Source: Amphiscolops sp. MND2022 (taxonomy: Eukaryota). Taken from it: a stretch of DNA of 64,000 nucleotides. Shown piece after piece: positions 732 to 39,024 of the stretch; within the stretch, counting starts at the first letter, position 1, and each line of letters starts with the position of its first letter. A program made the position numbers and the translations under genes. Under the pieces are notes generated by a model. It had not been told where the DNA came from. It searched no databases and saw only the letters and a list, made by a program, of their open reading frames with translations. The stretch lies in assembly GCA_964187785.1 (NCBI GenBank), contig OZ076409.1, positions 74,650,001-74,714,000 of the forward strand, written 5' to 3'.

Positions 732-2122
732 GTGGTTGGGGCGGTCCCCAGAACGCACAAGGAGGCGCGGGGAGGGTCCTGCGCCGACGTAGAATAATTT
801 CATATAATACTAGTATCCTACATGGGTGTTTTAGAAGCGATTTTGGAATCTAACCGTAGGATTTGGATAATTTTTTGCATGCGGCCATAACTCGAAATTC
901 TAAGAACTTTTTCCTACTGTCATTTTCCCCGCAAATTGTTTTTTGTTGACTTATGGCCGAAAAACCGGAAATAACGTCCTTTTTAGACGTTATATCCGAA
1001 GTGTCGTCATAACTTTTTTCCAGGGCATGCTAGCGTTCTCGTTCACTTTTACACTTAGTTGCAGCATCTCAAAATACAACTGGTGGAAAATTTTGGTTGC
1101 ATTCGGATCACCCCCCACCGAGATAGAAGGGTTCCCCCCTCCAGTTTTACCCCCCAAATTTGCAAAATAGCCAAATTTGAGCATGAAGCCGAGGATTTAG
1201 CGTACCCGCACTCTCCTGATGTTTTGTTGTACGTATTGAGGTCAATCTGACGACATGTGTGGTTTTCACCCCCAACTCCCCCCTTGGACCGGAAATGACA
1301 CTTTTTTGTGTTTTTTGGCAGAATTTAGCCTTTTTCATTATTAGGCAGTCGTTTTAGGGACTCCTAGCAGGATATCGAAATTGAAATACAACCTGATCAC
1401 AACCCAGTGACAACATGTTGGCCACTTGGAGGTATCATCATGACCGGAAGTGGGGTCAACCCCCCCTTTTTGTGACCGCTTTTTGACCTTGTGCACCAAA
1501 ATGCCAACATCTTGAGGCCTAATGAGGCATTCAAATCTGTACAAAGATAAAATGTTAGACAACCGAAGTCCCGGAAGATCTTTAGCATATACCGGAAGTT
1601 ACCCCCCATGACCGGAAGTTACCCAATGTGACCGGAAATGGTCCAAAAATTAATGTAAAGTTGAATTTTTCACTATTTCAAGACCACTTAATTGAAACTT
1701 TTCAATCTCAAAACTAGCGTACTGGCTTGTTTTGCTGAATTTATGGAAATTGATGAGCTCTATCGCCCCCGATAGCCTTCGAAGTTGACCTTGCGTCAAC
1801 TTTGGAGGCTATCGATAAAGAAAAATGAACAACAAAGTACATTGTTGCTCTCGTTTTTCTCCCGTTGTTTTTCCTCAAACATTCTTGAGACATATACATG
1901 GCCGTTAGTTGATATCAATATTTAGCCCATGTTATAGCTGGAGCAGCGAAGCGTTACACAGACTAGTGTGGTTTTGAAATCACACTATTTGAATTAACGA
2001 CTGACCGTCTTAGTCAACTCCACACACTCATACCAACGCCCACCGTCTGTGGGCATGCCGAGGCATGCCCTTCGACGACGTATGACGAATCCATTCCAAC
2101 GACACCCGCAGTCCTCAGCTAG
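732..2122 (+). mobile_element. Array unit A1 (family A, ~1390 bp, putative non-autonomous cassette)
   Basis: Starts gtggttggggcggtccccag and ends gtcctcagctag. Eight copies in the window. Confidence 0.7.
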
Positions 2123-3393
2123 GTGGCCGCGTCTTTTGTCGAACTTTAACCATGGAGGCGCGGGTAGGGTCCTGCGCCGACTTAGTGCCTTTACTATGAT
2201 ACAAAAATAGGTACCTGAGTAAACGATCTCGAAGATGAGCCGTCAGAAATTCCTGAAAATTTGCATGTGGCCCCCAATTGGCGAGCATATGAAAAGTGTA
2301 GGAGGTCATTTTTCCCAAATTCCACTGTGAGACGAGATAAACGCGAAAAATGAGGTAAAAAATGGACCCATTTTTGATAAATTTTGCAATATCTCGTTCC
2401 AGAGGCATCGGAGGTACCGTATACCTGACGTGGAAAATGCTCGGCATGTGAAGGGGGTTACGTGGACAAATTTTCGTCCAAATCGGATAAAAATTGACAG
2501 AGTAATAACAAATTTTTTTGTGCATTTTGGCGACTTTTTCAGAAAACCCAGTTTATCTCTGCCGTTTTTTGCCCAGATTTTTTTCTAGAACCTCTCCTAA
2601 AGGCCTCCCCTGGCCGGTTTATCTCCCAAAAAAACCATTTGGCCCTAAATACGAGGTTTCAGCGTTCTAGTTTTCCCCAGTAAAAAGTTATGGGACTTAG
2701 AAATTTTTCAAAAATTTTCAAATTTTTTCTAAAAAAGTTCAAGCCGCCCAAAGTGAAGAAACTTCCACACAACTAGTATTGCAAGTGAATGCATGTGGAA
2801 AGCCCTGCACTTGACGAGAAAAATGCCGTTTAGAACGTCTTTTTATCTTAACTTGATGTTGACTTATGATCTTTTGAGTAGCGTATAACACGTGATCACA
2901 GTAAAGAAAATCCTAATTTTCAAAAATTTTCAAACAATAACGCATGAAAAGAACCTGGAAAAGGTTCCGATGGATCAGTTGGGATGTCTGAAGCATGTGT
3001 ACATTTCCGTAGTGTATAGCGGATGTATTTGAGACTTATTAGAAATTGTGATAAATTTTATACAAGTCTTTGTTTCTCTTAGAATCTTATGCAGTTGAGT
3101 ACATTCCATCTCCCTCTCAGGGGAGATGTGAAAGTACGTTTGCCAAATGCCTTGTAAAGCTCACAATTTTGATGGATTCAAATAACTAAACAAGTGTGAT
3201 TTGCGTTTGCCGAACCACTGCGACAAAATATCCTAAATCTATAGCGAGATTGTATGGTTCTTGTCTTTAGTGTTTCGTCTTTGTAGCCGACTTCCACATC
3301 CAAATATCAACGCCCGCCGTCCGTAGGCATGCCGAGGCATGCCTTTCGACGACGTATGCCAAATACTTAATGCCACGCTGTCATTATCGCTAG
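2123..3393 (+). mobile_element. Array unit B1 (family B, 1271 bp)
   Basis: Starts gtggccgcgtctttt and ends cattatcgctag. Four copies. Confidence 0.7.
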
Positions 3394-5578
3394 GTGGAGG
3401 TTATTTTATAATAATTAAAGTGTTTTTTTCCGGAGTTTGTGGCTTTGGAAAAAACAAAAGGCGAGAAATTGGGCACTCCGGGCTGAACCGTATACACTCA
3501 AAATTCGCCCAATATTTATACGATCTCGAAACCCAGCCGTACGATTTGGCTGAAAATTTGCATGCGGCTAAAAAATCAGATTCTAAGAACTATTTCCTGC
3601 TGACATTTTTTTGAAATTTTTGTGTACGTTTCCCCCCCGCCCCCTAAAGGGGTCAATTTTCCCCAATTTTGCACTTTTTAGTCAAATTCTCAAAACTGGT
3701 GGATCTGAGCTTTTTCCCGATGGGGACAACTTTTAACAAGCGCTGTTCAGTAGACCTTTTTGACTTTTTACTTTGGTGGTACGTTCACCCCCCAAGGAGG
3801 AAATGGCGTTTTTGTGACTTCCGGTCGAGACTTTTTTCACCCAAAAAATAGAAATAAGCCAGTTTTGAGCAGGAAGGAGTGGATTTAAAGTGTCTGTACC
3901 CTGCTAAAAATTTGTGGGGCGTGTAGCGATATATCTCATAGCAAGTCTGGTTTTCACCCCCGAACCCCCCTCGAGACCAAAATTCACCCAAACGTTTTAC
4001 CTCTATTTGTGGTTTTTTCACAAAATGTCGTCATTTCCATCGGCAAAGATTTGAATTAGGGGCTCCTAATAGGGTACCAAAGTTCAAGTACACTTGGAGT
4101 GCAACTGAGTGACCCTTTTTGGGCCTCTCGTGTGTTCGGCAATAACCGGAAGTTGTATAAACCCCCCTTTTTTGACGTTTGTTGACCTTGAGACTCGCGC
4201 TTAGATGACGTTTATGTCGCGCAATTCCTACAAACCAGTATTAGAATGACATGCTAGCCAACTAGAGAGCAATAAGGGAAACTATACTATACCGGAAGTA
4301 ACCCCCTCTTGACCGGAAGTTGTCATTTTTGACCGGAAATGGTCCAAAACCTAGCGTGAAAGCTGTTTTTCATTGCTTTTAAAGTCAACTTATTACTTTT
4401 TTCACTCTGCGCGAGCTTGAATTCAGGTTCGTTAGTGTTGCCCGTACACACTGCAACAAATATACATCTGTAAAATTTTCGCTATAATATCGTCGGAGAG
4501 AGAAATAACGGGTTTTTGGGTTTTTTTTTCAAAAATATTAGTGTTTATCTGTCATTTTTACCCAACGTTATTGAACAGTAGAACCATAGGGGTTAGTCTT
4601 CGCCCAAATATATGCCTAACAAAAGCACTTGTCCCATTGGTTGCAGTTTGGGCGTTTTAGCTTTGCCTGGTCACAAGTTAGGGGACTTGAAAAACTTTCA
4701 AAATCATTTCCGAAATTTTTTTCTAAACGTCACGTCTCCCAAAGTTAAGAAACTTCCTCACAACTAGGACCGCAAGTGAATGCATGTGGTTAGACCTATA
4801 AATGGAGAGAAAAACTCCGTTTAGAACATCTCTTTATCGTAACGTGACGTTAAGAGATGTTGCTTTGAATGTGAATTTGATAATGCGTCGAGAAGTAAAA
4901 GTGTGTAAATGGAACCTTTGTCTCGATAAATACTCCTCGCAATACATGCGATGAACCCCAATTACCCTCAGTTTCAGTTGCTTAGTACATCAACGTCTTC
5001 CAAGGACCTTTTATCTATTTTGAAAATGTCGAAATCATTATTAATATCAGTTATCAAGAAACACATGAGCACATTCTCATCTCTCCCCATCGGGTGAGGT
5101 GAGAATGTTCTTGCTAAAAGCCAGGTACTACGGCCCCCTTTTGTTTTAATACGATGCATTCTCTGCTTTAGCTCATAGATATTTTTTTTCGCCTGATTGT
5201 TTGTATACTCTCTGACTTCTTGTTATAAATCTCTCGTCATTACTTTACATAAATATACAACCAAAAATCATTATCGTCAGCGCCACATACATTTAGACGC
5301 CCACCATTCCGTAGGTATGTCGAGGCATACCTTTCGATTACGTATGTCAAAACGCAAACGTGATAAAAAGTGCTGGAAGTCTCAAACAGTGACAAACAAA
5401 TTTGACTACTTGAAATATGGGAGGTTTTTATATGGAACTTACACATAGCTGACATTTCACAACTTTGCAGCTGACGCCCACATGCCAACATCAACGCCCA
5501 CCGTCCGTGGGCATGCCGAGGCATGCCCTTCGACGACGTATAGCAAATCCCTTTCACCGACGCGCACTCTCCCGCTAG
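3394..5578 (+). mobile_element. Array unit C1 (family C, ~2185 bp)
   Basis: Starts gtggaggttattttata and ends ctctcccgctag. Four copies. Confidence 0.7.
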
Positions 5579-6647
5579 GTGGTCAAGGGGGATGCCCATC
5601 AGAAAATATTGCGAGGCCGGGGAGGGTCCCGAGAGCCGAGCACATTCTATCAATTCCTACCTTCAGGATTGCGAAGTATTTTAACCGATCTCGAAATTCA
5701 CCCGTAGGATTTGTCTGAAACTTTGCATGTGGCTTTATCTCAAAAATTTAAGAATTTTTTTCTGCTGACGTTTTTCCAGGAAAATTCATTTTGTAGGGTT
5801 TTTTTGGGTTTTTTTGGTTTTTTTCATCTTTTTTCATCTTTGATTAATCAATGACCGAATCAAAGGCCATTTTCACCATGAAGGAAAGCCCGTAGCGGCA
5901 AAGTGCACTTTTATGAAAATCATCAACGGTCAACGGTCTTTCGAACGGTCCGAAAAAATTTCCCCCGGGGGAAACCAAAGTGCCGAAAAGTGCCAAAATT
6001 ATTTTTTTGACTGAATCACTTTGATCAAATTGATGATTTGAGCAGCCGGAACGGTCCGCACGGTCTCGGACAATAAGGTCAAAAATTGTCAGCATCCAAT
6101 GGGGGTTCCAAAAATGTAATTCGTTCACCTGTAGGAGACATCAGAAAAAAGTTGATTTTTTGGGGTATATGTCATTATGAGTGATTGGATGAGAAATAAT
6201 TGTATCACTTTCAGTTGGATATGATGCAGCACAGGAAGCAGCTGCAGCAAACTTGAAACTGATTATGGGGCTGGGGTTTACCCTCTGTATCGAGCAAAAC
6301 AGCCCTAGGGCATAAGTTGTGCCAAAAAATGCCTCAAAGTGATGATTAGGTTATTGCAAATCGTTCAGCAAAATTTATTGTCACCGGTGTTCCGAGAGTT
6401 GCGCAGCATCTCGCAGGAACAACGGTGCTTGCTTAGAAAGCAAAAAACCACAAAATCCCTTGAGTTAAGTTGACGGCAGTCACCATAGACATTCACTCGT
6501 CAGGGTGATGATAATTATCGTTCAATCCCAGAATAACTTACAAAAAATTGCTAGCCTCAATATTTCTTTTTCATACTCCATTAGCAAAGGTTGCGCTGTT
6601 AAGTTTAGGCCTTTTACTAGCAGTGCTCTAAATCGCTCCATCGCTAG
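5579..6647 (+). mobile_element. Array unit D1 (1069 bp, short relative of J)
   Basis: Starts gtggtcaagggg and ends ccatcgctag. Its 5' half is similar to J1. No GGCATGCC box. Confidence 0.65.
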
Positions 6648-8825
6648 GTGGATGGTATTTTATAACAATTAAAATGTTTTTTTCCGGAGTTTGTGGCTTT
6701 GGAAAAAACAAAAGGCGAGAAATTGGGCACTCCAGGCTGAACCTAAAAACACCCTAAAATTCGCCCGATTTTTTTACGATCTCGAAACCCAACCGTACGA
6801 TTTGGCTGAAAATTTGCATGTGGCTCCTAATCAATGAGTAATGAAAAAGTGTAGAAATGACTTTTCCTGGGAAAATTGTTTTTGTTGCACTTTTTGCGCA
6901 ATTTTTGACCGATTGTTGCGTTTTTTATGTCACTTTTGACTTTTCAGGCAAAAAACTCATGGATGCTTTGATCCTAGCGCATCCAGTGTTTCGACCAAAA
7001 AGTTGCAGCATGTTCTTTTACGTATGTTGAGAAAATTTGGTTGCCATCGTATTACCCCCCACTGAGATAGAGGGGGACTTCCGGTGGATTTTAGCACCCT
7101 AAAAACAAGGACCTCCTAAATTTCAGCATGAAGCGGTAGTTTTAGCGTGCTCATACCCTGCTGAAACTTTGTTGGGCATAATGAGATTGTCCTGATATCA
7201 TGTGTTCAGTTCACCCCCCATCACCCCCTGGACCGGAAATGAGCTTTTTTTGCACTATCATACCGGAAGTCTCCAATTTCACCGTTAAGCAGTCCTTGTA
7301 CGAGCAACTACCAGGACATCAAAATTGAAGTACCACCTGAGGTCAACATAGTGACCACGTGTTGTCCAATCATAGGTTCCGCTATGACCGGAAATGGGGT
7401 CAAAACCCCCTTTTTTGGTTGTTTTTTAACAATTTGACTAGTGTTTGGTCCACATTCAAGTCGCGTAAGTCAATTGAATCAGCGTGAGCATAAACTGTAT
7501 GTTCACTGCGTAGACGTAACTGACACTGACAGATACCGGAAGTAACCCCCCGTGACCGGAAGTTGTCATTTTTGACCGGAAATGGTCCAAAATGTAGCGT
7601 AAAATCAGTTTTTCACTGCTTTTTAAAGTCAACTTATTACTTTTTCAATCTCCGCGAGCTTGTATTCAGGTTCGTTTTTGTTACCCGTGCACTTTGCAAC
7701 AAGTATACATCTGTAAAATTTTCTCTATGATATCTTCGGATAGAGAAATAACATATTTTTGAGACTTTTTTCAAAAATATTAGACTATATCTGTCATTTT
7801 TACCCAAAGTTTTTCAACAGTACAACCACAGTGGTTAGTCTCTGCCCAAATTTATGCCTAACAAAACTATTTGGCCCATTGGCCTCAGTTTGAGCGTTCC
7901 AGCTTTGCGTGATCATAAGCTAAGGGACATGAAAAATTTTCGAACTTTTTTCAAAAAAAAATCTCACATTCATGTCTCCCAAAGTGAAGAAACTTCCACA
8001 CAACTAGGATTGCAAGTGGATGCCTGTGGCAAGCCCTATAATTGAAGAGAAAAATGCCGCTTAGAACGTCTCTTTATCGTAACTTGACGTTAACGTATGG
8101 TGTTTTGAATGTGAGCTTGATAAGGCGTCGAGAAGTCAAAGTGTGTAAATGGAACGTACGTCTCGTCGAAAACTCATCGGAATTCATGCAATGAACCCCA
8201 ATTGTCCTCAATGGCAGTTGCCTACTGCAACAACGTCTTTCTGGTACTTTTCACCCACTTTCATAAGTGTCAAAATTCTTTTTAAATTCAGTTAGCAAGA
8301 AGTACTTGAGTACATTTTCATCTCTCCCCAGCGGGTGAGATGAGAATGTTCTTGCTTAATGCCAGGTACTACGGCCCCCTTTTGTTTTAATGCGACGCAT
8401 TCTCTGCTTTAGCACATAGATATTTCATTTCGCCTGGTTTTTTGTATACTCTCTGACTTGTTATTATAAAGTTCTCGTCATTACTTTACATAAATTTACA
8501 ACCATAAATCGTTATCGGCAACGCCACATACATTTAGACGCCCACCATTCTGTAGGTATGTCGAGGCATACCTTTCGATTACCTATGTCATAACGCAAAC
8601 GCGATAAAAAGTGCTGAAATTCAGAAACAGTGAGAAACAATTTTCACTATTTGACATATGGTAGGTTTCTATAGGGAACTTACACATCACTGACATTTCA
8701 CAACATTCCAGCTGACGCCCACATACCAACATCAACGCCCACCGTCCGTGGGCATGCCGAGGCATGCCCTTCGACGACGTATGCCAAATTTTTTAAAATC
8801 TACACCCAATTGCGGTAGCTGCTAG
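6648..8825 (+). mobile_element. Array unit E1 (family E, ~2178 bp)
   Basis: Starts gtggatggtattttata and ends gcggtagctgctag. Four copies. Confidence 0.7.
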
Positions 8826-10213
8826 GTGGTTGGGGCGGTCCCCAGAACGCACAAGGAGGCGCGGGGAGGGTCCTGCGCCGACGTAGAATAATTTCATATA
8901 ATACTAGTATCCTACATGGGTGTTTTAAAGGCGATTTTGGAATCTAACCGTAGGATTTGGATAATTTTTTGCATGCGGCCATAACTCGAAATTCTAAGAA
9001 CTTTTTCCTACTGTTATTTTCCCCGCAAATTGTTTTTTGTTGACTTATGGCCGAAAAACCGGAAATAACGTCCTTTTTAGACGTTATATCCGAAGTGTCG
9101 TCATAACTTTTTTCCAGGGCATGCTAGCGTTCTCGTTCACTTTTACACTTAGTTGCAGCATCTCAAAATACAACTGGTGGAAAATTTTGGTTGCATTCGG
9201 ATCACCCCCCACCGAGATAGTAGGGTTCCCCCCTCCAGTTTTACCCCCCAAATTTGCAAAATAGCCAATTTTGAGCATGAAGCCGAGGATTTAGCGTACC
9301 CGCACCCTTCTGATGTTTTGTTGTACGTATTGGGGTCAATCTGACCACATGTGTGGTTTTCACCCCCAACCCCCCCTGGGACCGGAAATGACATTTTTTT
9401 GTGTTTTTTGGCAGAATTTAGCCTTTTTCATTATTAGGCAGTCGTTTTAGGGACTCTTAGCAGGATATCGAAATTGAAATACAACCTGATCACAACCCAG
9501 TGACAAAATGTTGGCCACTTGGAGGTATCATCATGACCGGAAGTGGGGTCAACCCCCTTTTTGTGACCGCTTTTTGACCTTGTGCACCAAAATGCCAACA
9601 TCTTGAGGCCTAATGAGGCATTCAAATCTGTACAAAGATAAAATGTTAGACAACCGAAGTACCGGAAGATCTTTAGCATATACCGGAAGTTACCCCCCAT
9701 GACCGGAAGTTACCCAATGTGACCGGAAATGTTCCAAAAATTAATGTAAAGTTGAATTTTTCACTATTTCAAGACCACTTAATTGAAACTTTTTAATCTC
9801 AAAACTAGCGTACTGGCTTGTTTTGCTGAATTTATGGAAATTGATGAGCTCTATCGCCCCCGATAGCCTTCGAAGTTGACCTTCCGTCAACTTTGGAGGC
9901 TATCGATAAAGAAAAATGAACAACAAAGTACATTGTTGCTCTCGTTTTTTTCCCGTTGTTTTTCCTCAAACATTCTTGAGACATATACATGGCCGTTAGT
10001 TGAAATCAATATTTAGGCCATGTTATAGCTGGAGCAGCGAAGCGTTACACAGACTAGTGTGGTTTTGAAATCACACTATTTAAATTAACAACTGACCGTC
10101 TCAGTCAACTCCACACATTCATACTAACGCCCACCGTCTGTGGGCATGCCGAGGCATGCCCTTCGACGACGTATGACGAATCCATTCCAACGACACCCGC
10201 AGTCCTCAGCTAG
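8826..10213 (+). mobile_element. Array unit A2
   Basis: Colinear with A1 between CTAGGTGG junctions. Confidence 0.7.
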
Positions 10214-11485
10214 GTGGCCGCGTCTTTTTGATGGACTTTTATCCTTGAGGCGCGGGTAGGGTCCTGCGCCGAGCTGGTGAAAATATACTACGTCCAAATC
10301 GCCCGTTCCGGAAACGATCTCAAAACTGGCCCGTACGATTTTCCTGAAAATTTGCATGTGGCCCCCAATTGGCGAGCAATGAAAAAGTGTAGGAGGTCGT
10401 TTTTCCCAAATTCCACTGTGAGAGGAGATATATGAAAAAAACGGACCCCAAAATGACGAAATTTTCACTTTTTGACCATTAATGGGACATTATCTCCTCA
10501 GACAAGGCTCGCAGCGACATTTGTCAGAACCCAAACCTGCAGCAGACTGTTAGAGCAGTGCACACAGTAAGTTTGAAGGAAATCGGATAATCACATGTGG
10601 AGAAATTGACGTTTTTCCGGCGAAATTTTTCGCAAATGCAGTCTATCTCTGCCGTTTTTTGCCCAAATTTTTTTCGAGACCCTCTCCTAAAGGCCTCCCC
10701 TGGCCCAATTTCCTTCCAACAAAACCATTTGGCCCTAAATACGAGGTTTCAGCGTTCCAGCATTCCCCAGTGAAAAGTTATGGGACTTAGAAATTTTTCA
10801 AAATTTTTCAAATTTTTTCTAAAAAAGTTCAGGCCGCCCAAAGTGAAGAAACTTCCACACAACTAGTATTGCAAGTGAATGCATGTGGAAAGCCCTGCAC
10901 TTGACGAGAAAAATGCCGTTTAGAACGTCTTTTTATCTTTACTTGATGTTGACTTATGATCTTTTGAGTAACGTATAACACGTGATCACAGTAGTGAAAA
11001 TCCTAATTTTCAATAATTTTCAAACAATAACGCATGAAAAGTATCTGGAAAGGTTCCGAAGGGTCAGTCGGGATGTCTGAAGCATGTGTACATTCCCGTA
11101 GTGTATAGCGGATGTATTTGGGACTTATTAGAAATTGTGATATAATTTATACAAGTCTTTGTTTCTCTTAGAACCTTATGCAGTTGAGTACATTCCATCT
11201 CCCTCTCAGGGGAGATGTGAATGTACGTTTGCCAAATGCCTTGTAAAGTTCACATGTTTGATGGACTTAACTAAAAAAAACAAGTGTGAGTTGCGTTTGC
11301 CGAATCGCTACAGCAAAAAATACTAAAACTTTAGTCAGATTGAATGGTTTTTGTCTTTAGTGTTTCTTCTTGTATAGCCGACTTCCACATCCAAATATCA
11401 ACGCCCACCGTCCGTAGGCATGCCGAGGCATGCCTTTCGACGACGTATGCCAAATACCCAATGCCACACAGTCTTTCCCCGCTAG
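10214..11485 (+). mobile_element. Array unit B2
   Basis: Family B start gtggccgcgtc; ends ctttccccgctag. Confidence 0.7.
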
Positions 11486-13656
11486 GTGGATGGTATTTTA
11501 TAACAATTAAAGTGTTTTTTTCCGGAGTTTGTGGCTTTGGAAAAAACAAAAGGCGAGAAATTGGGCACTCCAGGCTGAACCTAAAAACACCCTAAAATTC
11601 GCCCAATTTTTTCACGATCTCGAAACCCAACCGTATGATTTGGCTGAAAATTTGCATGTGGCTCCTAATCAATGAGTAATGAAAAAGTGTAGAAGTGACT
11701 TTTCCTGGGAAAATTGTTTTTGTTGCATTTTTTGCGCAATTTTGGACCCATTGTTGCGTTTTTTATGTCACTTTTGACTTTTCAGGCAAAAAACTCATGG
11801 ATGCTTTGATCCTAGCGCATCAAGTGTCTCGACCAAAAAGTTGCAGCATGTTCTTTTACGTATGCTGAGAAAATTTGGTCGCAATCGTATAACCCCGCAC
11901 TGAGATAGAGGGGGACTTCCGGTGGATTTTAGCACCCTAAAAACGAGGACCTCCTAAATTTCAGCATGAATCGGTAGTTTTAGCGTGCTCATACCCTGCT
12001 GAAACTTTGTTGGGCATAATGAGATAGTCATGATATCATGTGTTCAGTTCACCCCCATCACCCCCTGGGCCGGAAATGAACTTTTTTGTGCTTTATCATA
12101 CCGGAAGTCTCCAATTAAGCCGTTAAGCAGTCCTTGTACGAGCAACTACCAGGACATCAAAATTGAAGTACCACCTGAGGTCAACTTAATGACTACGTGC
12201 TGTCCAGTCCTGGGGTCCGCTATGACCGGAAATGGGGTCAAAACCCCCCTTTTTGGTTGTTTTTTAACAATTTGACTTGTGTTTTGTCCATATTCAAGTC
12301 ACAAAAGTCAATTGAACCAGTGTGAGAATAAACTGTATATCCACTGCGTAGACGTAACTGACACTGGCAGATACCGGAAGTAACCCCCTGTAACCGGAAG
12401 TTGTCATTTTTGACCGGAAATGATCCAAAATGTAGCGTAAAATCAGATTTTCACTGCTTTTTGAAGACAACATAATACTTTTTCAATCTTCGCGAGCTTG
12501 TATTCAGGTTCGTTTCTGTTACCCGTGCACTTTGCAACAAATATACATCGGTAAAGTTTTCTCTATAATATCGTCGGATAAAGAAATAACGTGTTTTTGG
12601 GACTTTTTTCAAAAATAGAAGACTAGATCTGTCATTTTTACCCAAAGTTTTTCAACAGTACAACCACAGTGGTTAGTCTCTGCCCAAATATATGCCTAAC
12701 AAAACTATTTGGCCCATTGGCCTCAGTTTGAGCGTTCCAGCTTTGCGTGGTCAGAAGCAAAAGTACTTGAAAAATTTTCAAACTTGTTAAAAAAAAATTT
12801 CTCACATTCATGTCTCCTAAGGTGAAGAAACTTCCATACAACTAGGGTTGCAAGTGGATGCATGTGGCAAGCCCTATAATTGAAGAGAAAAATGCCGCTT
12901 AGAACGTCTCTTTATCGTAACTTGACGTTAACGTATGGTGTTTTGAATGTGAGCTTGATAAGGCGTCGAGAAGTAAAAGTGTGTAAATGGAACCTATGTC
13001 TCGTCGAAAACTCATTGGAATACATGCAATGAGCCCCAATTGTCCTCAATTGCAGTTGCCTACTTCAACAACCTCTTTCTGGTACTTGTTACCCATTTTC
13101 ATAAGTGTCAAAATTCTTTTTAAATTCAGTTAGCAAGAAATACTTGAGTACATTTTCATCTCTCCCCAGCGGGTGAGATGAGAATGTTCTTGCCAAATGC
13201 CAGGTACTACGACCCACTTTTGTTTTAATGCGACGCATTCTCTGCTTTAGCGCATAGATTGATTAATTCGCCTGATTTTTGTATACTCTCTGACTTTTTA
13301 TTATAAATTTCTCGTCATTACTTTACATAAATTTACAACATGAAACGTTATCGTCAACGCCACATTCAGTTAGACGCCCACCATTCCGTAGGTATGTCGA
13401 GGCATACTTTTCGATTACGTATGTCAAAACGCAAACGCAATAAAAAATTCTGAAATTCTGAAACAGTGACAAACAATTTTGACTATTTGACATATGGTAG
13501 GTTTTTACATGGAACTTACACATCACTGACATTTCACAACATTCAAGCTGACGCCCACATACCAACATCAACGCTCACCGTCCGTGGGCATGCCGAGGCA
13601 TGCCCTTCGACGACGTATGGTAAATACCTTCTTACCGACGCGCACTCTCCCGCTAG
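11486..13656 (+). mobile_element. Array unit E2
   Basis: Family E body with a C1-type tail (accgacgcgcactctcccgctag). Confidence 0.7.
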
Positions 13657-15049
13657 GTGGTTGGGGCGGTCCCCAGAACGCACAAGGAGGCGCGGGGAGG
13701 GTCCTGCGCCGACGTAGAATAATTTCATATAATACTAGTATCCTACATGGGTGTTTTAGAGGCGATTTTGGAATCTAACCGTAGGATTTGGATAATTTTT
13801 TGCATGCGGCCATAACTCGAAATTCTAAGAACTTTTTCCTACTGTCATTTTCCCCGCAAATTGTTTTTTGTTGACTTATGGCCGAAAAACCGGAAATAAC
13901 GTCCTTTTTAGACGTTATATCCGAAGTGTCGTCATAACTTTTTTCCAGGGCATGCTAGCGTTCTCGTTCACTCTTACACTTAGTTGCAGCATCTCAAAAT
14001 ACAACTGGTGGAAAATTTTGGTTGCATTCGGATCACCCCCCACCGAGATAGAGGGGTTTTTTTTCCCCCCTCCAGTTTTACACCCGAAAATTGCGAAAAA
14101 GCCAATTTTGAGCATGAAGCCGAGGTTTTAGCGTACCCGCACCCTCCTGATGTTTTGTCGTACGTATTAGGGTCAATCTGTCAACATGTGTGGTTTTCAC
14201 CCCCAACCCCCCCTGGGACCGGAAATGACACTTTTTTGTGTTTTTTGGCAGAAATGAGCATTTTTCAATAGTAGGCAGTCGTTTTAGGGACTCCTAGCAT
14301 AAGATCGAAATTGGAATACAACATGATCACACCCCAGTGACAACATGTTGGCCATTTGGGGGTACCATCATGACCGGAAGTGGAGTCAAACCCCCTTTTT
14401 GTGACCTCGTTTTTACCTTGTGCACCAAAATGCCAACAACTTGAGGCCTAATGACGCATTCAAATCTGTACAAAGATAGAACGTTAGACAACCGAAGTCC
14501 CGGAAGATCTTTAGCATACACCGGAAGTTACCCCCCATGACCGGAAGTTACCCAATGTGACCGGAAATGGTCCAAAAATTAATGTAAAGTTAGTTTTTTT
14601 ACTATTTCAAGACCACTTCGTTGAACATTTTCAATCCCAAAACTAGCGTACTGGCTTGTTTTGTGAATTTATGGAAATTGATGAGCTCTATCACCCCCGA
14701 TAGCCTTCGAAGTTGACCTTGCGTCAACTTTGGAGGCTATCGAATCTGAAAATGAACAACAAAGCACATTGTTGCTCTCGTTTTTTTTCCGTTGTTTTTC
14801 CTCAAACATTCTTGAGACATATACATGGCCGTTAGTTGAAATCGATATTTTAGGCAATGTTATAGCGGGAGTAGCGACGCGTTACTCAGGCTAGTGTGGT
14901 TTTGAACTTACATTATTCAAGATAACTATGATCGTCTTAGTCAACGCCACACATTCATACCAACGCCCACCGTCTGTGGGCATGCCGAGGCATGCCCTTC
15001 GACGACGTATGACGAATCCACTCCACCGACGCTCGCAGTCCTCAGCTAG
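13657..15049 (+). mobile_element. Array unit A3
   Basis: Colinear with A1, more diverged in the 3' half. Confidence 0.7.
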
Positions 15050-16321
15050 GTGGCCGGGAATTTTTTTTCTGCTCAATTCTTTGCCAACTGGGGGAGGGGC
15101 CCCTGGTGGCTGTTACCCGAAATACATACCTACCCAATTCGTCCGCTCCGGATACGATCTCAAAACTGAGCCACACAATTTTCCTGAAACTTTGCATGTG
15201 GGCCTAAAATGAGATTGTAAGAACAATGATATAGGCGTTATTCCTGAATTTTTTCAAAAAGTTGGTCAAAAACGCAAAAAATGGGTCAAAATTGACCTCT
15301 TTTTCAACTTTTTTATTTTTGAGAGCCCATATCTCGGAACGAGGTGGCCGTAGCGGGCCGCATAAGGACTCCGTTTTTGCTGGGCACTTGATGAGGAGTG
15401 CGTGGACAAATTTTTGTCCAAATCGAAGTAAAATTGATTGAGTAATGAGTGATTTTTTGACGACCTTTTTTGCGAACCCCCTTGTATCTCTGCCATTTTC
15501 CGCCAAAATTTTCAGAAGTGATTCTACAGGAGGCAACCCCTGCCCAATTTTCTGCAAAACAAAACCATTTGGCCCTAAATACGAGGTTTCAGCGTTCTAG
15601 CATTCTCCGGTGAAAAGTTATAGGACTTAGAAATTTGTCAGTGAAACGCAAAATTTGTAAAGTCAACTTCCGGTGCCCAAAAGTCACAAAACTTTCACAC
15701 AACTAGTATTGCAAGTGAATGCATGTGGAAAGTACTGAAATAGACGAGAAAAATGAGCTATAGAACGACTCTCTACCTTAACGTGACGTTGACTTATGAT
15801 GTTTTGAATGTGAGCATCATATCTGATTTTAATGTCAAAAATGAGATTTTGTAAGTCATGTCTCATCAAAAACTCATCGGAATACGTTCAATCATCTCTA
15901 TAGCTGTTCAATTGCCGTAGCTTAGTACAGCAACGCCATTGAATGTCTTTGGACCCATTTTGAAAATTATCGATACCGTCTTATTCGTCCGATATCAGGA
16001 AACAGTTGAGTACATTCCATCTTCCCCCTTGTGGGGGAGATGAGAATGTACTCGCCAAAGACCTGATATAATGACCCATATTGGTTTTTATTTGACTTTT
16101 CTCACAATAATGCACACGGATAGCTGTGTTTGGTAAAAGTTTTCCTTTGCACCATGTCTCCAGAAGCAAAACCACTTCTTTAGCTTACTACTTCTACTCA
16201 AACATCACTAACGTCAACGCCACATACTCGCATCAACGCCCACCGTCTGTGGGCATGCCGAGGCATGCCCTTCGACGACGTATGCCAAATAGCGCCACAG
16301 GGCGCCCCCAATTTCCGCTAG
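15050..16321 (+). mobile_element. Array unit F1 (family F, 1272 bp)
   Basis: Starts gtggccgggaatt and ends atttccgctag. Related copy at 30222. Confidence 0.7.
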
Positions 16322-18499
16322 GTGGATGGTATTTTATAACAATTAAAATGTTTTTTTCCGGAGTTTGTGGCTTTGGAAAAAACAAAAGGCGAGAAATTGG
16401 GCACTCCAGGCTGAACCTAAAAACACCCTAAAATTCGCCCGATTTTTTTACGATCTCGAAACCCAACCGTACGATTTGGCTGAAAATTTGCATGTGGCTC
16501 CTAATCAATGAGTAATGAAAAAGTGTAGAAATGACTTTTCCTGGGAAAATTGTTTTTGTTGCACTTTTTGCGCAATTTTTGACCGATTGTTGCGTTTTTT
16601 ATGTCACTTTTGACTTTTCAGGCAAAAAACTCATGGATGCTTTGATCCTAGCGCATCCAGTGTTTCGACCAAAAAGTTGCAGCATGTTCTTTTACGTATG
16701 TTGAGAAAATTTGGTTGCCATCGTATTACCCCCCACTGAGATAGAGGGGGACTTCCGGTGGATTTTAGCACCCTAAAAACAAGGACCTCCTAAATTTCAG
16801 CATGAAGCGGTAGTTTTAGCGTGCTCATACCCTGCTGAAACTTTGTTGGGCATAATGAGATTGTCCTGATATCATGTGTTCAGTTCACCCCCCATCACCC
16901 CCTGGACCGGAAATGAGCTTTTTTTGCACTATCATACCGGAAGTCTCCAATTTCACCGTTAAGCAGTCCTTGTACGAGCAACTACCAGGACATCAAAATT
17001 GAAGTACCACCTGAGGTCAACATAGTGACCACGTGTTGTCCAGTCATAGGTTCCGCTATGACCGGAAATGGGGTCAAAACCCCCTTTTTTGGTTGTTTTT
17101 TAACAATTTGACTAGTGTTTGGTCCACATTCAAGTCGCGTAAGTCAATTGAATCAGCGTGAGCATAAACTGTATGTTCACTGCGTAGACGTAACTGACAC
17201 TGACAGATACCGGAAGTAACCCCCCGTGACCGGAAGTTGTCATTTTTGACCGGAAATGGTCCAAAATGTAGCGTAAAATCAGTTTTTCACTGCTTTTTAA
17301 AGTCAACTTATTACTTTTTCAATCTCCGCGAGCTTGTATTCAGGTTCGTTTTTGTTACCCGTGCACTTTGCAACAAGTATACATCTGTAAAATTTTCTCT
17401 ATGATATCTTCGGATAGAGAAATAACATATTTTTGAGACTTTTTTCAAAAATATTAGACTATATCTGTCATTTTTACCCAAAGTTTTTCAACAGTACAAC
17501 CACAGTGGTTAGTCTCTGCCCAAATTTATGCCTAACAAAACTATTTGGCCCATTGGCCTCAGTTTGAGCGTTCCAGCTTTGCGTGATCATAAGCTAAGGG
17601 ACATGAAAAATTTTCGAACTTTTTTCAAAAAAAAATCTCACATTCATGTCTCCCAAAGTGAAGAAACTTCCACACAACTAGGATTGCAAGTGGATGCCTG
17701 TGGCAAGCCCTATAATTGAAGAGAAAAATGCCGCTTAGAACGTCTCTTTATCGTAACTTGACGTTAACGTATGGTGTTTTGAATGTGAGCTTGATAAGGC
17801 GTCGAGAAGTCAAAGTGTGTAAATGGAACGTACGTCTCGTCGAAAACTCATCGGAATTCATGCAATGAACCCCAATTGTCCTCAATGGCAGTTGCCTACT
17901 GCAACAACGTCTTTCTGGTACTTTTCACCCACTTTCATAAGTGTCAAAATTCTTTTTAAATTCAGTTAGCAAGAAGTACTTGAGTACATTTTCATCTCTC
18001 CCCAGCGGGTGAGATGAGAATGTTCTTGCTTAATGCCAGGTACTACGGCCCCCTTTTGTTTTAATGCGACGCATTCTCTGCTTTAGCACATAGATATTTC
18101 ATTTCGCCTGGTTTTTTGTATACTCTCTGACTTGTTATTATAAAGTTCTCGTCATTACTTTACATAAATTTACAACCATAAATCGTTATCGGCAACGCCA
18201 CATACATTTAGACGCCCACCATTCTGTAGGTATGTCGAGGCATACCTTTCGATTACCTATGTCATAACGCAAACGCGATAAAAAGTGCTGAAATTCAGAA
18301 ACAGTGAGAAACAATTTTCACTATTTGACATATGGTAGGTTTCTATAGGGAACTTACACATCACTGACATTTCACAACATTCCAGCTGACGCCCACATAC
18401 CAACATCAACGCCCACCGTCCATGGGCATGCCGAGGCATGCCCTTCGACGACGTATGCCAAATTTTTTAAAATCTACACCCAATTGCGGTAGCTGCTAG
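16322..18499 (+). mobile_element. Array unit E3
   Basis: Almost identical to E1 (same length, 2178 bp) but with different neighbours. Confidence 0.7.
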
Positions 18500-20685
18500 G
18501 TGGAGGTTATTTTATAATAATTAAAGTGTTTTTTTCCGGAGTTTGTGGCTTTGGAAAAAACAAAAGGCGAGAAATTGGGCACTCCGGGCTGAACCGTATA
18601 CACTCAAAATTCGCCCAATATTTATACGATCTCGAAACCCAGCCGTACGATTTGGCTGAAAATTTGCATGCGGCTAAAAAATCAGATTCTAAGAACTATT
18701 TCCTGCTGACATTTTTTTGAAATTTTTGTGTACGTTTCCCCCCCGCCCCCTAAAGGGGTCAATTTTCCCCAATTTTGCACTTATGAGCCAAATTCTCAAA
18801 ACTGGTGGATCTGAGCGTATTCCCGGCGGGGACAACTTTTAACGCGCGCTCCTCAGTAGACCTTTTTGACTTTTAACTTTGGTGGTACGTTCACCCCCCG
18901 AGGAGGAAATGGCGTTTTTGTGACTTCCGGTCGAGGCTTTTTTCACCCAAAAAATAGAATTAAGCCAATTTTGAGCAGGAAGGAGTGGATTTAAAGTGCC
19001 TGTACCCTGCTAAAAATTTGTTGGGCTTGTAGCGATATATCTCATACCAAGTCTGGTTTTCACCCCCAAACCCCCCTTGGGACCAAAATTCACCCAAACT
19101 TTTTTTACCTCTGTTTGTAGTTTTTTTTGCAAAATGTCGTCATTTCCATGGGTAAGGAGTTGAATTAGGGGCTCCTAATAGGGTACCAATGTTCAAGTAC
19201 ACTTGCAGTGCAACTGAGTGACCCTTTTGGGGCCTCTCCTGTGTTCGACGAGGACCGGAAGTGGTGTAAACCCCCCTTTTTTGACGTTTGTTGACCTTGA
19301 GACTCGCGCTTAGATGACGTTTATGTCGCGCAAATCCTACAAACCAGTATTAGGATGACATGCTAGCCTACTAGAGAGCACTAAGGGAAACTATACTATA
19401 CCGGAAGTAACCCCCCGTGACCGGAAGTTGTCATTTTTGACCGGAAATGGTCCAAAACATAGCGTAAAAGCAGTTTTCATTGCTTTTAAAGTCAACTTAT
19501 TACTTTTTTCAGTCTGCGCGAGCTTGTCTTCAGATTCGTTTTTGTTGTCCGTGCACACTACAACAAATATACATCTGTAGAACTTTTGCTATAATATCGT
19601 CGGAGAGAGAAATAACGGGTTTTCGGAATTTTTTTCAAAAATGTTTGTCTATATCTATCATTTTTACCCAACGTTATTCAACAGTAGAACCACAGGGGTT
19701 AGTATCTGCCAAAATATATGCCTAACAAAACCACTCGTCCCATTGGTTGCAGTTTGAGCGTTCTAGCTTTGCCTGGTCACAAGTTGAGGGACTTCAAAAA
19801 GTTTCAAATTTTTTTGGAAAATTTTTTTTAAACGTCACGTCTCCCAAAGTTAAGAATTTTCCACACAACTAGGATTGCAAGAGAATGCACATGGTAAGAC
19901 CTATAAATGGAGAGAAAAATTCCGTTCAGAACGTCTCTTTATCGTTACGTGACGTTAAAAGATGTTGCTTTGAATGTGAATTTGATAATGCGTCGAGAAG
20001 TAAAAGAGTGTGAATGGATCCTATGTCTCGACAAATACTCATCGCAATACATACGATGAACCCCAATTACCCTCACTTTCAGTTGGCTAGTACATCAGCG
20101 TCTTCCAAGGACCGTTTACCTATTTAAAAATTGTCAAATTCATTATTAATATCAGTTAGCAAGAAATATTTGAGTACATTGTCATCTCTCCCCATCGGGT
20201 GAGATGAGAATGTTCTTGCTAAAAGTCAAGTACTACGGCCCATTTTTGTTTTATTGCGACGTTTTCTGTGCCTTAGCACAAGGATACTTTTATGTCATCT
20301 CACTTTTGTTATACAATCTGACTTGTTGTTATAAAATTCTCGTCATTACTTTACCTAAACTTACTACCATGCATCTTTAACGTCAAAGCCAAATTCATTT
20401 AGACGCCCACCATTCCGTAGGTATGCCGAGGTATGCCTTTCGAAGAAGTATGGCAAAACACAAACGGGCAAATGAAAGGGCTGAAATTCAGAAACAGTCA
20501 CAAACAATTTTGACTATTTGACCGATGGTAGGTTTTTATATGGAACTTACACATCACTGACATTTCAAAACATTCCAGCTGACGCCCACTTACAAACATC
20601 AACGCCCACGGTCCGTGGGCATGCCGAGGCATGCCCTTCGACGACGTATGGCAAATACCTTTTACGACGTCCCAACTTTCCCTAG
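18500..20685 (+). mobile_element. Array unit C2
   Basis: Family C start; unique tail cccaactttccctag. Confidence 0.7.
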
Positions 20686-22073
20686 GTGGTTGGGGCGGTC
20701 CCCAGAACGCACAAGGAGGCGCGGGGAGGGTCCTGCGCCGACGTAGAATAATTTCATATAATACTAGTATCCTACATGGGTGTTTTAGAGGCGATTTTGG
20801 AATCTAACCGTAGGATTTGGATAATTTTTTGCATGCGACCATAACTCAAAATTCTAAGAACTTTTTCCTACTGTCATTTTCCCCGCAAATTGTTTTTTGT
20901 TGACTTATGGCCGAAAAACCGGAAATAACGTCCTTTTTAGACGTTATATCCGAAGTGTCGTCATAACTTTTTTCCAGGGCATGCTAGCGTTCTCGTTCAC
21001 TTTTACACTTAATTGCAGCATCTCAAAATACAACTGGTGGAAAATTTTGGTTGCATTCGGATCACCCCCCACCGAGATAGAAGGGTTCCCCCCTCCAGTT
21101 TTACCCCCCAAATTTGCAAAATAGCCAATTTTGAGCATGAAGCCGAGGATTTAGCGTACCCATACCCTCCTGATGTTTTGTTGTACGTATTGGGGTCAAC
21201 CTGACGACATGTGTGGTTTTCACCCCCAACCCCCCCTTGGACCGGAAATGACACTTTTTTGTGTTTTTTGGTAGAATTTAGCCTTTTTCATTATTAGGCA
21301 GTCGTTTTAGGGACTCCTAGCAGGATATCGAAATTGAAATACAACCTGATCACAACCCAGTGACAACATAGTGGCCACTTGGAGGTATCATCATGACCGG
21401 AAGTGGGGTCAACCCCCCTTTTTGTGACCGCTTTTTGACCTTGTGCACCAAAATGCCAACATCTTGAGGCCTAATGAGGCATTCAAATCTGTACCAAGAT
21501 AAAATGTTAGACAACCGAAGTCCCGGAAGATCTTTAGCATATACCGGAAGTTACCCCCCATGACCGGAAGTTACCCAATGTGACCGGAAATGGTCCAAAA
21601 ATTAATGTAAAATTGAATTTTTCACTATTTCAAGACCACTTAATTGAAACTTTTCAATCTATAAACTAGCGTACTGTCTTGTTTTGCTGAATTTATGGAA
21701 ATTGATGAGCTCTATCGCCCCCGATAGCCTTCGAAGTTGACCTTGCGTCAACTTTGTAGGCTATCGATAAAGAAAAATGAACAACAAAGTACATTGTTGC
21801 TCTCGTTTTTTCCCGTTGTTTTTCCTCAAACATTCTTGAGACATATACATGGCCGTTAGTTGAAATCAATATTTAGCCCATGTTATAGCTGGAGCAGCGA
21901 AGCGTTACACAGACTAGTGTGGTTTTGAAATTACATTATTTAAATTAACAACTGACCGTCTTAGTCAACTCCACACATTCATACCAACGCCCACCGTCTG
22001 TGGGCATGCCGAGGCATGCCCTTCGACGACGTATGACGAATCCACTCCAACGACACCCGCAGTCCTCAGCTAG
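20686..22073 (+). mobile_element. Array unit A4
   Basis: Colinear with A1. Confidence 0.7.
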
Positions 22074-24264
22074 GTGGAGGTTATTTTATAATAATTAAAG
22101 TGTTTTTTTCCGGAGTTTGTGGCTTTGGAAAAAACAAAAGGCGAGAAATTGGGCACTCCGGGCTGAACCGTATACACTCAAAATTCGCCCAATATTTATA
22201 CGATCTCGAAACCCAGCCGTACGATTTGGCTGAAAATTTGCATGCGGCTAAAGAATCAGATTCTAAGAATTATTTCCTGCTGACAATTTTTTGAAATTTT
22301 TGTGTACGTTTCCCCCCCGCCCCCTAAAGGGGTCAATTTTCCCCAATTTTGCACTTATGAGTCAAATTCTCAAAACTGGTGGATCTGAGCGCATTCCCGA
22401 CGGGGACAACTTTTAACAATCGCTCTTCAGTAGACCATTTTGAATTTTTACTTTGGTGGTACGTTCACCCCCCAAGGAGGAAATGGCGTTTTTGTGACTT
22501 CCGGTCGAGACTTTTTTCACCCAAAAAATAGAAATAAGCCAGTTTTGAGCAGGAAGGAGTGGATTTAAAGTGTCTGTACCCTGCTAAAAATTTGTTGGGC
22601 TTGTAGCGATATATCTCATACCAAGTCTGGTTTTCACCCCCAAACCCCCCTCGAGACCAAAATTCACCCAAACGTTTTACCTCTATTTGTGGTTTTTTCA
22701 CAAAATGTCGTCATTTCCATCGGCAAAGATTTGAATTAGGGGCTCCTAATAGGGTACCAAAGTTCAAGTACACTTGGAGTGCAACTAAGTGACCCTTTTT
22801 GGGCCTCTCGTGTGTTCGGCAATGACCGGAAGTGGTATTAACCCCCCTTTTTTGACGTTTGTTGACCTTGAGACTCGTGCTTAGATGACGTTTATGTCGC
22901 GCAAATCCTACAAACCAGTATTAGGATGACATGCTAGCCAACTAGAGAGCAATAAGGGAAACTATACTATACCGGAAGTAACCCCCTCTTGACCGGAAGT
23001 TGTCATTTTTGACCGGAAATGGTCCAAAACCTAGCGTGAAAGCAGTTTTTCATTGCTTTTAAAGTCAACTTATTACTTTTTTCACTCTGCGCGAGCTTGC
23101 CTTCAGGTTCGTTAGTGTTGCCCGTGCACACTGCAACAAATATACATCTGTAACATTTTCGCTATAATATCGTCGGAGAGAGAAATAACGGGTTTTTGGG
23201 ATTTTTTTCAAAAATATTAGTCTTTATCTGTCATTTTTACCCAACGTCGTTATTGAACAGTAGAACCATAGGGGTTAGTCTTTGCCCAAATATATGCCTA
23301 ACACAAGCACTTGTCCCATTGGTTGCAGTTTGAGCGTTCTAGCTTTGCCTGGTCACAAGTTAGGGGACTTGAAAAACTTTCAAAATCATTTCCGAAATTT
23401 TTTTCTATACGTCACGTCTCCCAAAGTTAAGAAACTTCCTCACAACTAGGACTGCAAGTGAAAGCATGTGGTAAGACCTATAAATGGAGAGAAAAACTCC
23501 GTTTAGAACGTCTCTTTATCGTAACGTGACGTTAAGAGATGTTGCTTTGAATGTGAGTTTGATAATGCGTCGAGAAGTAAAAGTGTGTAAATGGAACCTT
23601 TGTCTCGATAAATACTCATCGCAATACTTGCGATGAACCCCAATTACCCTCAGTTTCAGTTGCTTAGTACATCAACGTCCTCCAAGGACCTTTATCTATT
23701 TTGAAAAGTGTCGAAATCATTATTAAAATCAGTTATCAAGAAACACTTGAGTACATTCTCATCTCTCCCCATCGGGTGAGATGAGAATGTTCTTGCTAAA
23801 AGCCAGGTACTACGGCCCCCTTTTGTTTTGATGCGATGCATTCTCTGCTTTAGCACATAGATATTTTATTTCGCCTCATTGTTTGTATACTCTCTGACTT
23901 GTTGTTATAAATCTCTCGTCATTACTTTACATAAATATACAACCGAAAATCATCATCGTCACGCCACATACATTTAGACGCCCACCATTCCGTAGGTATG
24001 TCGAGGCATACCTTTCGATTACGAATGTCAAAACGCAAACGCGATAAAAAGTGATGAATGTCTGAAACAGTGACAAACACTTTTGACTATTTGACATATG
24101 GTAGGTTTTAATATGGGAGTTACACATCACTGACATTTCACATCATTCCAGCTGACGCCCACATACCAACAACAACGCCCACCGTCCGTGGGCATGCCGA
24201 GGCATGCCCTTCGACGACGTATGCCAATTTCTGTAAATCTACACCCAATTGCGGTAGCGGCTAG
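22074..24264 (+). mobile_element. Array unit C3
   Basis: Family C body with an E1-type tail (tctacacccaattgcggtagcggctag). Confidence 0.7.
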
Positions 24265-28831: not shown

Positions 28832-30221
28832 GTGGTTGGGGCGGTCCCCAGAACGCACAAGGAGGCGCGGGGAGGGTCCTGCGCCGACGTAGAATAATTT
28901 CATAAAATACTATTATCCTACATGGGTGTTTTGGAAGCGATTTTGGAACCTACCCGTCAGATTTGGATAATTTTTTGCATGCAGCCATAACTCGAAATTC
29001 TAAGAACTTTTTCTCTCTGTCATTTTCCCCGCAAATTGTTTTTTGTTGACTTATGGCCGAAAAACCGGAAATAACGTCCTTTTTAGACGTTATATCCGAA
29101 GTGTCGTCATAACTTTTTTCCAGGGCATGCTAGCGTTCTCCTTCACTTTTACACTTTGTTTTAGCATCTCAAAATACAACTGGTGGAAAATTTTGGTTGC
29201 ATTCGGATCACCCCCCACCGAGATAGAAGGGTTCCCCCCTCCAGTTTTACCCCCCAAAATTGAGAAAATACCAATTTTGAGCATGAAGCCGTGGATTTAG
29301 CGAATCCTCACCCCCCTGATGTTTTGTCGGACATGTTAGGGTCAATCTGGTGACATGTGTGGTTTTCACCCCCAACCCCCCCTGGGACCGGAAATGACAC
29401 TTTTTTGTGTTTTTTGACAAAAATGAGCCTTTTTGATTAGTAGGGAGTCGTTTTTGGGCCTCCTAGCAGGATATCGAAGTTGAAATACAACTTGATCACA
29501 ACCCAGTGACAACATGTTGGCCAGTTGCAGGTACCATCATGACCGGAAGTGGGGTCAAACCCCCCTTTTTGTGACCGCTTTTTGACCTTGTGCACCAAAA
29601 TGCCAACAACTTGAGGCCTAATGACGCATTCAAATCTGTACAAAGATAGAACGTTAGACAACCGAAGTCCCGCAAGATCTTTAGCACATACCGGAAGTTA
29701 CCCCCCATGACCGGAAGTTGTCCAATGTGACCGGAAATGGCCCAAAAATTTATGTAAAGTTACTTTTTTCACTATTTGAAGACCTTTTCGTTGAACATTT
29801 TCAATCTCAAAACTAGCGTACTAGCTTGTGGCGTTGAATTTGTGGAAATTGATGAGCTTTATCACCCCCGATAGCCTTCGAAGTTGACCTTGCGTCAACT
29901 TTGGAGGCTATCGATTCTGAAAATGAATAACAAAGTACAATGTTGCTCTCGTTTTTTTTCTGTTGTTTTTCCTCAAACTTTCTTGAGACATATTCATGGC
30001 TGTTAGTTGGAATCAATAATTTAGACCATGTTATGGCGGGAGTAGCGAAGCGTTACACAGGCTAGTGTGGTTTTGAAATTACAATATTTAAAATAACAAA
30101 TGACCGTCTTAGTCAACGCCACACTTTCATACCAACGCCCACCGTCTGTGGGCATGCCGAGGCATGCCCTTCGACGACGTATGACGAATCCACTCAAACG
30201 ACGCCCGCAGTCCTTAGCTAG
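28832..30221 (+). mobile_element. Array unit A5
   Basis: Colinear with A1; appears by eye to be the most diverged A copy. Confidence 0.7.
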
Positions 30222-35800: not shown

Positions 35801-35952
35801 CTTTTTTTCACACCATGTGACTCAACTATAACATGTATGTAATGAAACCAATAACACCTTCAACTATCAACGCCCACCGTCCGTAGGCATGCCGAGGCAT
35901 GCCTTTCGACGACGCGCGCCGAAAACAATTCAACGGCGCCACCCGCTTCTGG
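32881..35952 (+). mobile_element. Array unit H1 (family H, ~3072 bp, CTGG end)
   Basis: Starts gtggtcagtgctg and ends ccacccgcttctgg. Four copies. Confidence 0.7.
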
Positions 35953-38900: not shown

Positions 38901-39024
38901 ATGTACGTAATGAAACCAATAACACCTTCAACTGTTAATCAACGCCCACCGTCCGTAGGCATGCCGAGGCATGCCTTTCGACGACGCGCGCCAAAAACAA
39001 ATTAACGGCGCCACCCGCTTCTGG
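35953..39024 (+). mobile_element. Array unit H2
   Basis: Colinear with H1, more diverged. Confidence 0.7.

Follow-up and report, generated by a model that had tools for sequence, protein, structure and literature searches.

What is the role of a nearly invariant palindromic box that recurs close to the 3' end of many repeat units in the 64,000-nt stretch of DNA analyzed here (the window; GC content 40%)? An earlier note on this DNA had proposed that the box is the cis-acting recognition or termination signal for an enzyme that mobilizes the units.

Organization of the array and its junctions

Comparison of the units with one another showed that positions 1-58302 (+ strand, as for all features of the window given below) form a mixed head-to-tail array of non-coding units, 1.07-4.9 kb in length and of about ten types, which we assigned to families A-I plus X and D2. 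The left end of the array lies outside the 64,000-nt window, giving a length of at least 58 kb, and the units occur in the order X A B C D E A B E A F E C A C C G A F A H H H E I A B H B D2 A(truncated). The partial unit X (1-731), which ends without a box at a junction, is followed by the focal unit of family A (732-2122, running from GTGG to CTAG if the cut falls after CTRG). Two further boxless units, D (5579-6647) and the 4.9-kb D2 (52683-57570), have in common a different 3' end, CCATCGCTAG, and the last unit (57571-58302) comprises the 5' half of family A and stops before the box. Tandem repeats of about 350 nt that are 67-72% identical occupy the interior of D2 (53500-54700), and short ACCGGAAGT repeats with a 20-nt period, which we take to resemble an ETS-type site, are found at 1591-1637 in A and also in related units.

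All 30 junctions read CTRGGTGS, with 25 instances of CTAGGTGG (2119-2126 at the end of the focal unit), four of CTGGGTGG and one of CTAGGTGC. The left half is CTAG at 26 junctions and CTGG at four, the latter always after H (for example, after the H unit with its box at 35868-35914), and the following head begins with GTGG in 29 cases and with GTGC in one (D2). GG is invariant throughout, and within the array every unit sits between G and G. Because CTGG always trails H and D2 begins with GTGC, exchange takes place inside GGTG; the variable tail (2081-2118 in the focal unit) stays with the upstream unit, and the box was accordingly rejected as the crossover site. GGTG is common to all 30 junctions, in a tandem arrangement that cannot separate a direct repeat from two abutted ends, and the cut may instead lie behind GGTG, or the four bases may be a repeat that units share rather than the product of abutted ends. 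A CCAC, CACC or CCAT in the tail could pair with the next GGTGG in 21 of 25 cases compared to 14.6 after shuffling, for a motif that was picked post hoc.

The most informative pair of units is E05 (6648-8825) and E11 (16322-18499), which differ at only 2 of 2178 bases and have different neighbors on both sides. Identity between them collapses at the cores: only 5 of the 30 positions preceding the first core match, as do 4 of the 30 that follow the second, indicating that each unit moves on its own and exactly at the junction. Units of family A are preceded by seven different kinds of unit, and repeated neighbor pairs number five compared to 4.7 in permuted orders. Thus, unit order is random, and block duplication was rejected as its source.

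No transposase or recombinase gene or remnant was found in the window, within a Pfam scope of X, G, H, D2 and the flank. Across that scope, 83 stop-to-stop frames gave no meaningful match, the flank contributing one sub-threshold match (E 0.046), and 12 read-through frames, six each from D2 and H, gave no match. The longest open frame in the window extends 137 codons from its start codon. The absence of genes, the GC content and the repeat architecture together suggest a eukaryotic host, probably an animal.

Conservation and folding of the 3' box

Using positions 2034-2084 as an ungapped query over the window, we recovered 27 + strand copies of the box with 0-6 mismatches per 51 nt, in the same eight families that the earlier note had listed. 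The box proper is 47 nt long and is present in seven A units (2034-2080 in the focal unit, 10125-10171, 14961-15007, 21985-22031, 30133-30179, 32792-32838 and 46982-47028), four B units (3308-3354, 11399-11445, 48256-48302 and 52596-52642), four C units (5492-5538, 20600-20646, 24173-24219 and 26364-26410), four E units (8733-8779, 13569-13615, 18407-18453 and 44194-44240), two F units (16234-16280 and 31407-31453), one G unit (28745-28791), four H units (35868-35914, 38940-38986, 42014-42060 and 51327-51373) and one I unit (45588-45634). The core is absent from the minus strand, where matches in the ungapped scan were only the shadow of the palindrome itself. The exact 18-nt core was matched 26 times in the window, compared to 0.00 times in 100 shuffles, and the 27th copy (B, 52596-52642) carries a single core substitution.

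Every intact 47-nt box ends 32-44 nt ahead of the T of the junction (C-T-R-G-G-T-G-S), whereas the 20-nt core palindrome (2051-2070 in the focal unit, nine pairs around GA) ends 45-57 nt and is centered 55-67 nt from the 3' end of the unit, taken as the end of CTRG. The distance of 45-57 bp reported earlier is thus correct when measured from where the palindrome ends up to the last base of CTRG, but not from the end of the box. An snRNA-type promoter was rejected, since this spacing varies by 12 nt.

A per-column profile, as had been suggested, showed that 36 of the 47 columns are invariant and that family-weighted conservation is 0.97 in the box compared to 0.62 in the 47 nt upstream (ungapped). 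Between families, identity is 0.90-1.00 in the box and 0.36-0.64 in the tails, bearing out the observation that the flanks and tails differ, except that C, E and G agree at 92-98% over the 47 nt upstream of the box. Because these three families share pre-box sequence, the eight families that carry the box represent at most six independent contexts, not eight. In the six families that were tested, only six columns of the box segregate compared to 43.9 expected from the bodies, and the box ranks among the quietest windows in all six. Nevertheless, variation is uneven, with 1-17% of body windows within families as quiet as the box, and the first 100 columns of families A, C, E and H are about equally conserved.

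The terminal box is missing in three of 30 units (X, D and D2), where local scores are at shuffle level; all three end at the common junction. The ungapped scan identified nine further degenerate copies with 13-17 mismatches and no other match with fewer than 26. These copies, in C, E and G units, sit 196-201 nt upstream of the terminal box (at 5296-5342 in the first C unit, where the distance is 196 nt, and beginning at 8537, 13373, 18211, 20402, 23977, 26168, 28544 and 43997). A duplication of about 196 nt of the 3' region in C, E and G units (e.g., 5296-5540) left this decayed upstream box; in the copy of G (28544), the outer arms now form a perfect 11-bp stem and the core has decayed.

The 47-nt box folds better than its shuffles (z -2.8 to -3.4), whereas the 107-nt region around the focal box reaches a z of only -1.3. 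Covariation of the outer pair, which the earlier note had emphasized, was observed, with G:C at this place in 19 copies and A:T in the eight from B and H. It is, however, the only two-sided variation among 28 terminal boxes (the 27 copies and that of L002, a metagenomic relative described below that also has A:T), and it can be explained by one event, since three haplotypes with single-step links account for all families. Adding four internal duplicates raises the number of pairs with two-sided changes to five of 12. Template switching can also yield symmetric change in decaying palindromes. The alternative stem that had been considered possible, GCCCAC/GTGGGC, was discarded; its pairing is disrupted in L002 and in all eight boxes of families B and H, and no predicted fold of a terminal box contains it.

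The box was also used as a seed in pattern scans for an autonomous partner, as the earlier note had advised, and none was found in viral, metagenome or prokaryote sequences. Four scans of viral contigs returned 0, 0, 5 and 0 loci, the five matching little beyond the 16-nt pattern, two scans of prokaryote genomes returned none, and phage records contained no match to positions 2000-3400. The metagenome scan returned three loci; two of them, L001 and L003, match over 23-24 GC-rich nt by chance, which leaves L002 as the only true relative recovered. Its body is about 72% identical to B and F (578/801 and 587/802 aligned positions, respectively), its box equals that of H over 48 nt, and this is followed by a new tail, a CGAG/GTGC junction and an A-like head. 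Box, 5' hairpin and tandem junction are all retained in L002. The identity of its box and the drift of the internal duplicates serve as two controls that favor selection on the box.

Hairpins at the 5' end and within units

A second end structure lies at the 5' side of the units. Of the ten head types in the window, eight have a stem-loop 38-48 nt after the junction whose apex reads G(G/T)AGGG, as in the B unit that follows the focal unit (2157-2178); L002 has one as well (910-948), and families C and E have a different hairpin at this place. The stems differ in sequence, and when arms were swapped among seven stems (B was excluded because its stem is the same as that of A) the native pairs ranked 5 of 5040. 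The 5' hairpin thus covaries more convincingly than the 3' box. RNAalifold detected little covariation in an automatic alignment of the 5' hairpins (term -0.15) because bulges shift the register. A further block of the type CGATCTCRAAA...TGAAA.TTTGCATG (2222-2270 in the B unit) is common to all 30 heads about 100-175 nt in; the part ending in TTTGCATG presumably recalls the cores of DINE-1/Lep1-type elements.

Other hairpins occur in the unit bodies. Family A has an internal hairpin of 45 nt (1770-1814 in the focal unit), and a related one is present in the boxless D2 (56580-56625). Units X, B, C, E, F and G and also L002 have a long internal hairpin, approximately 200-500 nt from the 3' end, in which loops have changed and stems are kept (425-478, 3101-3150, 5071-5120, 16012-16060 and 28329-28380; 560-610 in L002). 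Across the hairpins read on the + strand, G-T pairs outnumber A-C pairs by 11 to 2, in counts that are non-independent, compared to 5 to 2 in the flank, an excess that weakly supports a single-stranded + strand intermediate.

Possible modes of mobilization

The units are best read as non-autonomous, Helitron-like rolling-circle elements ending in CTRG, although the enzyme class is one that we infer. The box itself probably has some cis role for a mobilizing enzyme; more specifically, and tentatively, it may be the folded single-strand stop signal of an HUH Helitron-like transposase that also inserts at resident CTRG ends. Such an enzyme, encoded elsewhere, would nick the + strand at the junction, displace the unit, pause at the folded box and cut after CTRG, and the copy would then be attached downstream of the CTRG with which some other resident unit ends, giving a mixed array with no extra bases. 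Cleavage of resident CTRG ends as targets would thus account for arrays that are mixed, in one orientation and without added bases. The boxless units X, D and D2 would owe their mobility to read-through or to another partner. The 3' rule given for Helitrons in the cited passages, CTRR, accommodates CTRG (PMC3627910, PMC11417382). In addition, the portion of the Helraiser study cited here describes a 3' hairpin that acts as a termination signal, the loss of which lowers efficiency to approximately 9% and causes read-through and does not abolish transposition (PMC4778049). By analogy, such behavior would suit a box that is conserved but dispensable and lies at a variable distance from the end. 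The proposal of a cis-acting recognition or termination signal thus stands in part: the fixed side and strand, the scarcity of segregating columns, L002 and the decayed duplicates speak for it, and the lack of an enzyme among the sequences searched, the boxless units, the single event behind the covarying pair, the exchange between C and E and the p53-type fit (both described below) keep it short of proof.

Comparison with described groups both supports and limits the Helitron-like reading. As in Helitron1 (HLE1) and Helraiser, the units have a CTRR-type 3' end (30 of 30, if the cut follows CTRG), a GC-rich 3' hairpin, no terminal inverted repeats and no bases added at junctions. Unlike Helitron1, which starts with TC, inserts between A and T without duplication and has a 16-20 nt palindrome about 11 nt from its end, they start with GTG(G/C), appear within the array to insert at CTRG/GTG, center their hairpin 55-67 nt from the end, carry an extra covarying 5' hairpin and are mixed randomly, about ten types to an array. 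A canonical Helitron1 was therefore rejected on the missing 5' TC and the distance of the hairpin from the 3' end. Also counting against a Helitron-like or rolling-circle origin are the CGAG end of L002, which is not CTRR, the absence of an autonomous partner or protein remnant from the sequences searched, and the three of 30 units that are boxless. Tandem arrays of Helitrons are already in print (PMC12001565, PMC11934779, PMC5148889, in the parts cited), and targeted, oriented Helitron clusters are described in the cited part of a study of Paramecium (PMC13085455).

The presence of hairpins at both ends is shared with Helitron2/Helentron, HINE/DINE-1 (HLE2) and FoHeli elements, from which the present units differ in that the 5' hairpin is farther from the terminus, 38-48 nt inside. 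According to the cited section of one study, HLE2 3' signals are nearly unchanged across families with less than 70% body identity (PMC4067079). HLE2 elements are recognized by subterminal or asymmetric inverted repeats of 8-15 bp, for which HELIANO uses 11 or more. When the first 80 nt and the last 120 nt of the units were compared, no terminal inverted repeat of at least 11 nt was detected (the longest, 5-9 nt in 29 units, are not common between families). HLE2/HINE elements, as characterized in the parts of the literature cited, were rejected on the lack of such repeats, T-rich ends and a TT target (PMC4067079, PMC5148889); a TIR (cut-and-paste) transposon or MITE was likewise rejected for want of terminal inverted repeats, and KolobokP-type multimers because the long direct repeats and TTAA named as required in the cited text are absent here (PMC9587614). 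Replitrons resemble the units in the HUH-type reading, a short end repeat (for which GGTG would be the candidate here), a right-end hairpin and insertion downstream of RG, which precedes every head in the array. As far as the cited sections describe them (PMC10288648), however, they are known from plants, algae and protists and have the core TAAAGG, unlike CTRGGTGS, and the present units showed no fuzzy ends or duplications and yielded no Rep in our search.

An unlikely alternative, and the one that we consider ahead of the others, is that site-specific recombination at a core of 4-8 bp moves the units as cassettes, with the box as the binding site of a Crypton-like tyrosine recombinase, an integron-like recombinase acting on single strands or an IS607-like serine recombinase acting at GG. 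Exchange within a short common core and a random order of units would fit the integration of circles at junctions. Like Cryptons, the units have a short common core at their ends and no terminal inverted repeats; Crypton terminal direct repeats of 4-6 bp (TATGG in CryptonS) are taken as recombination substrates in the cited portion of one study (PMC3212892), and IS607 crosses over at GG, according to the cited part of another (PMC10711439), a dinucleotide that is invariant here. However, the core is not flanked by inverted repeats of 11-13 bp (arms around it are complementary at 3.9 of 14 positions), core variants are tied to element ends, and the distance from box to unit end varies from 55 to 67 nt, a spread greater than one helical turn. 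No recombinase was found in the Pfam scope given above, and in animal Cryptons the same study (PMC3212892) detected no terminal repeats.

The palindrome can also be read as a protein-binding site. The p53-type consensus consists of two RRRCWWGYYY half-sites. The core, including that of the focal unit, fits two such half-sites without a spacer and with one mismatch in 20 in 26 of the 27 terminal boxes and in L002, as judged by match to this consensus; the G/A and C/T variants remain within R and Y, and eight of the nine internal duplicates have lost the fit. It is nonetheless quite improbable that the core is a site for a host factor of the p53 family carried by the elements and not a transposase signal, because the conserved stretch of 47 nt extends well past a 20-nt site, R and Y change jointly as a pair, in six of the internal duplicates C:G has become T:A on both sides, so that the hairpin is preserved but the site is lost, and a factor site would need no fixed place ahead of the junction.

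We assign a slightly lower chance again to the box being a passenger, kept alike by gene conversion or crossing-over, with a palindrome that repairs itself by template switching. Homogenization does contribute to the likeness of the boxes, because 3' parts have been exchanged between C and E: over the last few hundred bases, informative sites change partners, and two tail types are each found in both families (C03 with E08, and C14 and C15 with E05 and E11). Haplotypes of the box are also discordant with bodies, since F combines a B-like body with the A/I box, and both the symmetric changes in decayed internal duplicates and the equally quiet body windows are compatible with such a passenger. 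Nevertheless, the box of L002 is identical over 48 nt despite the divergence of its body, the internal duplicates escaped homogenization at a distance of only 196 nt, and the box is among the quietest windows in every family tested.

More remote is the prospect that the units move through RNA, as retroelements or structured RNAs, with the box and the 5' hairpin as RNA structures. Telomeric retroelements form mixed arrays in one orientation, and the 5' hairpins of most heads fold better on the + strand, with G-U pairs present. However, none of the 30 heads is 5'-truncated or accompanied by poly(A) or long junction repeats, and Rfam contains no family that matches the window at the gathering score, a relaxed threshold over 1900-3600 giving six matches at the level of chance. 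Least probable of all are non-autonomous, target-specific DDE transposons of the Dada type inserted repeatedly at one site, for although Dada elements, in the cited sections, lack terminal inverted repeats, make 6-7 bp target-site duplications and form tandem insertions of two families split by one duplication (PMC3706591; see also PMC8869645), the bases at positions 3 and 8 of the core are here linked to the elements, so that at most 4 bp of invariant core are left, the window contains no tRNA or other small-RNA gene as a target, and neither a common subterminal inverted repeat nor a DDE enzyme was found.

A hairpin near the 3' end of a transposon is ordinary. The setting is unusual, in that about ten unit types with two end signals are stacked in random order at a single precise junction across no less than 58 kb; the array and its end signals make the case notable, more so than does the covarying pair. 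Neither CTRG/GTGS ends nor the random stacking of mixed units at a single junction is described in the literature consulted, and the family may already be catalogued. It is conceivable, if rather doubtful, that the units represent an undescribed group of eukaryotic DNA transposons with CTRG/GTGS ends and a hairpin at each end, whose enzyme inserts at its own junctions and thereby builds integron-like mixed arrays of tens of kb, a self-made safe harbor for many families in at least two lineages. If the enzyme does target its own junctions, this would be sequence-specific, scarless integration by a eukaryotic DNA transposon, a rare property with practical uses in view, and would offer a path by which transposons give rise to complex satellite-like DNA. 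Both the box and the 5' hairpin could serve directly as probes for the autonomous partner in the host genome.

At the right end of the array, the last A unit breaks off after approximately 735 nt. Beyond it lies a perfect 26-nt palindrome (58324-58349), perhaps the end of another element. In the flank, an unrelated repeat built of 60-nt sub-repeats occurs twice, at 59100-59600 and 63240-63720, and its two copies have diverged.
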